64,000 nucleotides of DNA from the NCBI GenBank assembly GCA_035084275.1, contig CM068765.1, forward strand, positions 5,146,001 through 5,210,000, in the 5' to 3' direction. The notes under the pieces are model-generated. The model ran no database searches. It was not told the DNA's origin and saw nothing but the letters and a program-made list of their open reading frames with translations. Shown here piece after piece: positions 33,701 to 36,700 of the stretch (position 1 is its first letter; the number at the start of each line of letters is the position of its first letter). The translations under genes and the position numbers were made by a program. Source of the DNA: Hydrolagus colliei. Lineage: Eukaryota.

Positions 33701-36700
33701 GATCAATTCATCCGATTGTTGTACGATGATGTCTTTCACTTTGACACCACTGATTTCCACCACTGATTTCCTTTCAGGAAATAACATTATGCGATAGAGC
33801 ACATGGGTAGTTCGGGATGTGAACTTCTTGGTGTGCATATGTGCATATGGCCACCAGGAAGGTAATCCAAGTCCCATCTGATGACTATCCTCTTCAATCA
33901 TACCTATAGCTACCCTCCCAGCCAGACCCCCCCACCCCATCCACCCTGTTCCCCTTCTGACCCCCAACTCCCAGCTTCGATCCTTGTCTAATGCCTTGGG
34001 ATGTCCTGCTGACATGAAAGACGCTATAAAAATGTAATTTTGTTTTTGTTGTTATTATTGTTTCAGGCAGAAATGTGGGGTGGAAAGCATCAAAAAATGC
34101 AAGTGGGGTGGGGGTGAAGGCACTCTAAAACTGGGGTGTGTGGGAGGCCTTGATACAGTGGGTGACGTGGAGGCAGTGCCATAGTAATGGAGGGCCCCTG
34201 ATTATTGTTGTAAGGAGCAAGTGAAAGCAGGGCTCAGTCACACAACAGTAGTTAATGTACTCCAGCAGTGGCTTCAGTTACAACGTGGGAAGAATTAGCT
34301 CGATAAATCAGAGTAACGGAAGATTTCTGCTTCTCTGTCACTGCAGGTGACTATTGGGTCGATCCTAACCAAGGCTGTTCCAAAGATTCCTTCAAAGTCT
34401 TCTGCAACTTCACGGCTGGAGGAGACACGTGCATCTTCCCTGATAAGAAATCTGAGGGAGTAAGTGAACTCTACACTTCTCTTAACTCTAGACCTGAGGG
34501 TGCCCATTTAGTACAGCGGGGACTCGGAGTGTTACAGACTGGTCGGGGGCTCGGAACTCATTAACGGCAATCCCAGGTCCTGTCTGTGCCTGTTCTGGTT
34601 GCCATCATGGGTCCCATGACTCTGTCGGAAAAGAGAAGGGACTTCCACCTGGCTGGTTTGCTGCCTGACAGTTCCTCTGGATACACGATTGGTCATTTAT
34701 GGGATGGCTGTGTGTATCAGGGAGCCTGCTGTTCACAAAATGACTGTCACGTTTGCACAGAAAGTGCTCTCCACGATAATTACATTTAAAAGCTATGGAG
34801 CGCTTTGCTGTATGTGCAATTGAAATGGTAGGTAGATGGTATTGCTGAGAGAGGAATGGGATGAAGGTTGGTGACGCTCTAGGAGAGCGGGATTGGGTAT
34901 CAGGGATAGGGTCTAGAGGGAGAGGGATGGCGAAGTGATAGGGTATTGGGGAAGGAGGTGGGGACTCGAAAAGAGGGGAGACGATCTTGGGGGTGTCCAG
35001 ATTGATGTCTGTGTCAGTATCTCTAACTCTGAGTTGTTACCGTTTGTGTGAAGACTTGGAGCTGGCAGGTGGTGGACCTCAGAGCATTGCCACGACACGC
35101 GGCAGGAATGTGCGTATTGTTGCTGTTTTCACATTAATTGAATGTTTTTTTTTTCTTTTGTGTTTTTTTCCGACCTGCCTCACACACCAGGCTAGAATTA
35201 CCAGCTGGCCAAAGGAAATACGAGGCTCCTGGTTCAGTGAATTCAAGCGTGGTAAACTGGTAAGATTTGCAACCTGTTGTTCTAGTCTATAACAGGTCTC
35301 GTATTTTACAGAGCAAAATGGCTCGTTGGCCCAAAGAGGTGCCTGGTACATGGTATAGTCAGTACAAGCGGGGCGCAATGGTAAGTAGCTAACTCCAGTC
35401 AGCCTCCCTCCATGGCACTCACCATGCTTTTCTTCTCTCTCGCGCACCCCCTACTCTGCTGACTCACCTCCACTCAATTAATTGTTCATTGTCAAAAGAA
35501 CTGCTCTCCACCAACCCCCTTCCCAGAGAGGGGACGAAGGAGAGAGAGCAGTGAACGGGATTAGAGGAGAGAGCTCCAGTGTAGCCTCGACTATGCAGTA
35601 GATATAATGAAGAAAGAGTAGGGATTGGGGATTAGAGTAGAGAGTTCCAGTAGGAGAGCGAGCACTGGCACAGACATGATGGTGAGGGTGGGGCGAGAAC
35701 AGGGAATGGGGCAGCGAGCTCCAGGCATGATGGCTGAATGGCCTCTTCCTGTTCTGGAATCACTCCAGTATATATAAGTGTTTGGACTCCCCCTCCATTT
35801 GCTTGAATGTGAGGGTGGAGTCAGCTGGGATTTCCTGTCAGCGCTCGTCACCAGGACTCAGGGCTGATGAATGGCTTTGTGAGGGACCCGTATAACTGAC
35901 CTGGGACAGTCAGCGATGGGATGCAGTCAGCAATGAGACAGGCAGTAATCATCAGGACAAAGGTCATCAAGGAATTTGGTGGAGGGGTGCTCAGAAACTT
36001 AACTGTGATTGTTTGGAGACCTGAGTGTGAAGTGCACAGAAGCAATTGGTGGAAAGTTGGATAAATCTCTGAGCAGGTCCGTGGGGGACGCCCTGATGTG
36101 TCTGTTTCTCTTCCTCTCATTCTCTGCCTTTCGTCTCCTTTTGCTTCACTCTGTGCCAGTGGCTTCCCGGCCGGCCTGCTGACACCTCACGAAATGTCGC
36201 ACTTCTCCCGCTGGTGGTTATCACAGGTTCCTTAAATAAGGCAAACACTTCTCTGGAGATGGGGAGGCGGAGGGCTGATCGCAGGATTACGACGGGGGTA
36301 AAGAGGGAAAGGGTATTTCCCACTGGTCGACCCGTCAGTCACGAACGAGAGGGCAGAAAGCACAGATCACACCACAAAGGAATTAAAGGGGGATGTTAGA
36401 AAACGTGTCTCTACACTGTGGGGGAGGGGAGGATGTGGAATCCTTCGCCACAAGTTGCAAGAGTTGAGAGCGTCTGTGAATTATCTTTGAAAGGAATTCG
36501 GTAGATAGTGAAGAGGAAGAGTATTAAAGGGGGCATTGGACATGGAGAAAAAACTATTAGCACAGAGTTGGTAACCTGTACGAATCTGAGATGCTCAGCC
36601 CATTAGGGAGGAAGGTGGTGGGCTTTATATGCAATAAAATCCTGATTTCCACGTGGCTACCCTGACTCCTACCAGCCCCAGGAGAGGGAGTGTTGATATG

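Follow-up and report, generated by a model that had tools for sequence, protein, structure and literature searches.

A chimaera COL5A1 gene carries the exon 64A/64B pair around a 52-nt intron that is probably too short for the two exons to be joined

The window, by which we mean the whole 64,000-nt stretch of Hydrolagus colliei DNA analysed here, has on its plus strand a fibrillar collagen gene, of which the 3' part is included. The upstream part of this gene (707-33259) comprises 41 triple-helix exons (707 to 32418), which are Gly-X-Y exons of 45, 54 or 108 nt, and exon 62 (33001-33259). Downstream lie exon 63 (34347-34459), two 69-nt exons that are the subject of this analysis, exon 65 (38063-38296) and a last coding exon with the stop codon (39202-39348). 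The gene ends in a COLFI C-propeptide with 8 cysteines, and its matches carry PF01410. The best named matches of the gene are COL5A1, and its C-propeptide is 94.5% identical to that of a Callorhinchus milii protein (P0161) and 82-85% identical to tetrapod COL5A1. In a 33-row C-propeptide tree, the base of which is left open, the window sequence is sister to C. milii (support 100/98), and the two form one clade with three unnamed Logan proteins (99/91). In a quick tree of 29 rows and 462 columns, with one long-branch eel row unplaced, the window sequence joins the COL5A1 of bony vertebrates (87), COL11A1 being separate (99). On similarity and tree position, the gene is COL5A1, a clade B fibrillar collagen grouped apart from COL11A1. 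The same comparisons point to a holocephalan other than C. milii as its likely source.

Inspection by eye of the 106 open reading frames in 39400-64000 recognised no neighbouring gene. At 61031-62302 the minus strand has an open reverse-transcriptase frame of 423 residues, part of a LINE (PF00078) that we take to be of the CR1 type. Its identity is 57-62% with shark and ray entries that carry a name, mostly above the values for birds and turtles (43-56%), and the highest identities (64-67%) are to entries that are unnamed or have bacterial labels; the frame helps only weakly in placing the organism. Vertebrate collagen and LINE fragments also appear under bacterial species labels in P0203, P0257 and P0261, on contigs of 237-1687 nt, and these labels are likely the result of contamination.

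One of the 54-nt triple-helix exons (19399-19452) encodes Ala at a Gly position (codon 19435-19437) and so breaks the Gly-X-Y repeat. Among ten proteins that have this exon, the position is Ala in four (pike col11a1a models and a Salvelinus entry) and Gly in the other six, all of them teleost entries; the C. milii protein P0161 stops short of the exon. The Ala may represent a shared ancestral interruption or convergence. Our literature search on this particular break returned nothing specific. Hoffman 2010 reportedly describes an imperfection in one of the clade B chains of zebrafish.

The sequence-only reading that preceded this work had singled out two equal, phase-0 exons of 69 nt with AG/GT sites, at 35191-35259 (A) and 35312-35380 (B), and their coordinates and translations proved exact. 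The same is true of the 52-nt spacer intron between the A donor and the B acceptor (35260-35311), of the end of exon 63 at 34459 and of the start of exon 65 at 38063. Exon 63, the common upstream exon of 113 nt, has AG/GT sites and is in frame both with exon 62 and with either member of the pair, each of which has a CAG acceptor and a GT donor. The A and B peptides share 10 of 23 residues and differ at 13, and the exons are identical at 40 of 69 nt. Chance similarity was considered and rejected: the ungapped BLOSUM62 score of A against B is 79, far above the next best score, 25, among 127,858 six-frame windows of 23 residues, and among 209 open AG-69nt-GT segments the runner-up to A-B scores 1.

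Two simple explanations of exclusive use were likewise rejected. A form with A alone and a form with B alone each give an open C-terminal end of 273 residues with 8 cysteines, and retention of the spacer leads to a stop within it, at residue 158. A guard on the pair by reading frame or NMD fails because the form with both exons is in frame and open for 296 residues (the form that skips both is also open, at 250 residues). Incompatibility between U2 and U12 sites fails as well, since all three donors are GTAAG with AG acceptors, and we take the donors to be non-U12 by the U12 donor consensus.

Both exons have close counterparts in other vertebrates. The human 64A and 64B peptides were taken from the supplements of PMC5740500 and PMC8373072. 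Of the 23 residues of the window A peptide, 21 agree with human and amniote 64A and 22 with C. milii; of those of the window B peptide, 19 agree with human and amniote 64B and 20 with the Logan protein P0163. A scan with an exon-B pattern found two orthologous loci in metagenome contigs, one of amniote type (L001) and one of teleost type (L002), and none in prokaryote genome contigs. At the DNA level, the window and the amniote-type locus share 60 of 69 nt between the A exons and 57 of 69 between the B exons, as against 40-41 of 69 across types. A tree built from 41 exon peptides over 23 columns places window A within the A group (SH-aLRT 93) and window B within the B group (99). Since identity across species exceeds that between A and B within a species, and since A and B form separate clades, the two exons are, by these comparisons, orthologues of COL5A1 exons 64A and 64B, as the sequence-only reading had proposed. 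Such higher identity across species than between twins, which here goes with the same order and phase, is what PMC8373072, in its accessible parts, takes to indicate common ancestry. The human pair is MXE cluster 2975 in PMC5740500 and event 51 in PMC8373072, and it was reportedly described in Hoffman 2010 and Mitchell 2012.

Codon 11 of the window exon A encodes Arg. The position is an invariant Pro in an alignment of 22 sequences and is Pro in C. milii, and the Arg may reflect change in this lineage, polymorphism or an error in the assembly.

The sequence-only reading held that the presence of both exons here would date the switch to the gnathostome ancestor. That age is not new: the supplement of PMC8373072 (Martinez Gomez 2021), in the part available, already gives Vertebrata, an older node, as the last common ancestor for the COL5A1 event, and the accessible text places 84.3% of such events at least as far back as jawed vertebrates. 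The event and its age were thus already known, and what the window adds is mainly a cartilaginous-fish data point.

The origin of the pair can be approached through the paralogues. The single C-propeptide exon peptide of COL11A1 is A-like (on average 15-18 of 23 residues identical to A versus 8-11 to B), and none of the COL11A1 proteins examined has a peptide of B type, a comparison made at the protein level. In the exon-peptide tree, A groups with the COL11A1 exon (SH-aLRT 91). The corresponding exons of COL11A2 and of genes that we label COL5A3-like, a label that is our own reading of the sequences, are about equally distant from A and B. Duplication inside COL5A1 (an A+B clade; p-AU 0.53) and an older duplication (a clade of B, COL11A2 and COL5A3-like exons; p-AU 0.69) are both compatible with the 23 columns available, neither being rejected. 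Among 131 further proteins, taken as 50% representatives, 28 have one exon-64-like stretch and none has two; none of the 10 looked up from the 50% representatives was identified as a lamprey or hagfish protein. A Chiloscyllium plagiosum protein annotated as 'alpha-1(V)-like' (P0052) has an exon-64 peptide that matches both A and B at 12 of 23 residues and falls outside the window clade, so that its sequence probably represents another clade B paralogue in sharks. This peptide occurs twice in the gene model, likely a model error.

At the protein level, splice choice would swap a 23-residue, outward-facing loop of the C-propeptide. According to PMC5353611 (Sharma 2017), exon 64 corresponds to residues 91-117 in procollagen I C-propeptide numbering, and the accessible text describes this region as a surface loop without inter-chain contacts. 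The recognition residues 126-129 are assigned there to exon 65, the 234-nt common downstream exon, which has the chain-recognition sequence inside it by the alignment in the supplement of that paper and by the available part of PMC7379176. The sequence-only reading had suggested that B, by swapping EF for QY, may change chain partners. The idea was also suggested by Mitchell 2012, as cited in the accessible part of PMC7379176, where it is repeated, and it has some appeal: only three to four residues separate the end of exon 64 from the long stretch used in chain recognition, and an acidic-to-neutral change at exon position 17 and an F-to-Y change at position 18 recur in nearly all B forms. QY itself holds for the window but is not invariant, since teleost B exons have HY or RY. 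However, all inter-chain bonds listed in PMC5353611 for type I and III trimers lie outside residues 91-117, although that table covers hydrogen bonds, salt bridges and disulfides only, and clade A chains. We found no structure of a clade B C-propeptide, and all five of the solved-structure matches are of types I and III. With the loop outside the trimer interface and the recognition sequence in exon 65, the proposal is weakly supported at best, and we consider it rather doubtful that the swap changes which collagen chains trimerise. An effect on the outer binding surface or on folding, judged by analogy with these clade A structures, is more likely than one on partner-chain choice, and an indirect effect on trimerisation is possible; the A and B forms of the window have the same net charge, +4. 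The functional question thus shifts away from the choice of chains and towards the outer surface of the C-propeptide.

Proteins assembled from relatives illustrate how the two exons are used. Among the Logan matches listed, all 55 COL5A1 ORFs spanning exons 63-65 have exactly one 23-residue insert (A in 40 and B in 15), and none has both exons or neither. These counts have to be read with the sample in mind, because cluster listings hold at most 15 members each, many of the 55 ORFs look like near-identical mammal or bird copies and so are not independent, and assembled contigs drop rare forms. The full set of 123 Logan proteins comprises, besides the 55, 62 without a match to the end of exon 63, 5 from other paralogues, and P0163. 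In the last of these, exon 63 is spliced to B, after which the sequence continues into the intron; it belongs to the cartilaginous-fish clade (99/91, over 88 aligned columns only), and P0006 and P0162, from the same cluster, have A. A and B occur in tandem in 2 of 244 collagen proteins (P0037 from trout and P0062 from eel), both unnamed or hypothetical gene models in which the tandem is probably a prediction artefact.

What could keep A from being joined to B? Of the 46 introns traced in the window gene, none is shorter than the spacer, the other 45 measuring 85-3573 nt. It is similarly short in other lineages: 52 nt in the window, 54 in the amniote-type locus, 65 in the teleost-type locus and 63 in human, where 64A ends at 134830044 and 64B starts at 134830108. 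The likely branch point of exon B had been placed near 35292, about 33 nt from the A donor. The best consensus match in the spacer (35287-35293) does have its adenine at 35292, 33 nt from that donor and 20 nt from the B acceptor. The best motif match predicts a branch point at -20 in the amniote-type locus too, and in the teleost-type locus -20, -21 and -11 are tied. Any spacer adenine that is 15 nt or more from the acceptor is no further from the A donor than 35 nt in the window, 35 in the amniote-type locus and 46 in the teleost-type locus. The last 25 nt of the spacer are identical between the window and the amniote-type locus at 20 positions, compared with at most 14 for the other 45 acceptors; the 15 of 25 shared with the teleost-type locus are within background.

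The accessible parts of PMC5740500 and PMC7969005 put the steric threshold at about 50 nt between donor and branch point. By geometry, and with a predicted branch point, the window spacer is below it; across the loci the predicted branch points lie 33-46 nt from the A donor, those of the teleost locus (45-46 nt) being close to the threshold. On a 52-nt intron, U1 would be unable to assemble at the A donor while U2 does so at the B branch point, and such a clash on the spacer would be the reason why A is never joined to B. Because the spacer is short and all candidate adenines are under the threshold, geometry offers the simplest bar to joint inclusion. Steric interference, already proposed in the sequence-only reading, appears from spacers of 52-65 nt and branch points under about 50 nt to be the likeliest bar to A-B joining, and mutually exclusive use of the exons with a steric block, the predicted B branch point being 33 nt from the A donor, is in our view quite probable.

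The window spacer could, besides being short, be folded. It is predicted to pair end to end (35260-35266 with 35303-35309, and 35272-35280 with 35289-35297 on the plus strand) with a minimum free energy of -18.0 kcal/mol, a value as low as which is reached by none of 500 shuffles (z -5.4). In this predicted hairpin, the A donor pairs with the B acceptor, and the branch adenine is buried; the adenine and the A donor are predicted to be paired in context as well. If the hairpin enforced or tuned exclusion, either exon would need the stem opened. In the controls, 11 of 655 intron tiles reach -18, but none of the 119 with GC up to 0.40. A z of -4 is reached by 2 of 200 sampled tiles, and about 1 intron tile in 100 folds as well as the spacer; -18 is also reached by a single one of 45 joined intron ends, and a longer stretch from the spacer past B is unremarkable (z -1.5). 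The fold is weak in the amniote-type spacer (-7.8, a value that 67 of 500 shuffles equal or better), with the 7-bp outer stem predicted there too, and absent from the teleost-type spacer, where 340 of 500 shuffles are as low, yet both loci keep the exon pair. Moreover, the outer stem is partly given by the donor and acceptor consensus alone, and a stem hiding both sites does not in itself explain why one exon or the other is used. We therefore regard enforcement or tuning of exclusion by the hairpin as unlikely, and the hairpin, a product of folding models, as a lead that is possibly lineage-specific. More speculative still, and in our estimate quite improbable, is a combined scenario in which the spacer is a structured RNA switch, its stem pairing the 64A donor with the 64B acceptor and burying the branch point, that adds a gate to the steric block, is ancestral in jawed vertebrates and was eroded in teleosts, and in which the twin exons predate the split of COL5A1 and COL11A1, with COL11A1 keeping only A.

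A steric block would forbid the A-B junction but leave the choice between A and B to regulators acting on two weak acceptors. Weak they are: the splice sites had been called good, which is fair for the donors, ordinary for the gene (ranks 16 and 37 of 43), but not for the acceptors, at ranks 1 and 3 of 43. A motif scan of the 3' end of intron 63 (35131-35190) predicts a distant branch point (35137 or 35141-35142) before a long U-rich tract and the weak acceptor of A. Seen by eye, the window, the amniote-type locus and the teleost-type locus share a similar layout for exon A, with a predicted branch point far out, at about -50 to -75, and a long pyrimidine tract after it, and this region may be a site of regulation. 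At 66-140 nt after B, TGCATG occurs in both the amniote-type and the teleost-type locus and ACTAA in the amniote-type locus; the window has neither in the 300 nt after B. We take TGCATG to be an RBFOX-type and ACTAA a QKI-type motif. In the accessible parts of the respective reports, A/B shifts are described with hypoxia and CTCF in human (bioRxiv 10.1101/2023.05.06.539689), with TGF-beta (bioRxiv 10.1101/2025.10.06.680821) and in mouse sutures (PMC7379176). It might accordingly be argued that exclusion is mainly a matter of trans-acting or chromatin regulation (CTCF and polymerase pausing under hypoxia, as for human 64A), the short spacer being incidental. The shifts, the weak acceptors and the TGCATG motifs downstream of B in two loci speak for this, and the window, without TGCATG after B, does not share the last of them. 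However, the two bioRxiv papers, as far as available, explain the choice of exon and not the failure of A to join B, and an incidental spacer would hardly be expected to stay at 52-65 nt in four lineages in a gene whose other introns are all longer. We consider this explanation of exclusion improbable.

Exon B is very unlikely to be a silent relic in Hydrolagus: the single C. milii model found does use A, but B is open, keeps 19 of 23 residues and 57 of 69 nt relative to amniotes, has conserved splice sites behind a conserved spacer 3' end, and is spliced to exon 63 in P0163, a relative of the same clade, so that this species, by its sequence, would be expected to use B as well.

The COL5A1 switch has been linked to fibrosis, cancer and skull development, and the question is how its exclusivity is kept. 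In the sources consulted, we found no published steric or hairpin mechanism for 64A/64B, although Hoffman 2010, Mitchell 2012 and Dataset EV2 and the Appendix of PMC5740500 may state one; COL5A1 is not named in the supplement of PMC7969005. The mechanistic value of the present results is modest and lies in a spacer that, from chimaera to human, stays within 52-65 nt and has a branch-point motif at -20.

Compared with human COL5A1 64A/64B, the window pair is alike in gene, exon position, length of 69 nt, phase 0, order and very short spacer. It differs in having a spacer of 52 nt where the human one has 63, in the Arg at position 11 of exon A, where homologues have Pro almost without exception, and in the strong hairpin predicted for its spacer but not for that of the teleost orthologue. 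As for the proposed steric block, the accessible parts of the literature on sterically enforced MXEs (57 of 629 human clusters in PMC5740500; OGDH exons 4a/4b in PMC7969005) describe the same arrangement of an upstream donor under about 50 nt from the branch point. The route to it appears to be different, however: judging by the available text on OGDH, that gene has a distant branch point in a longer intron, whereas in COL5A1 the whole intron is short and the predicted branch point is at the usual -20.
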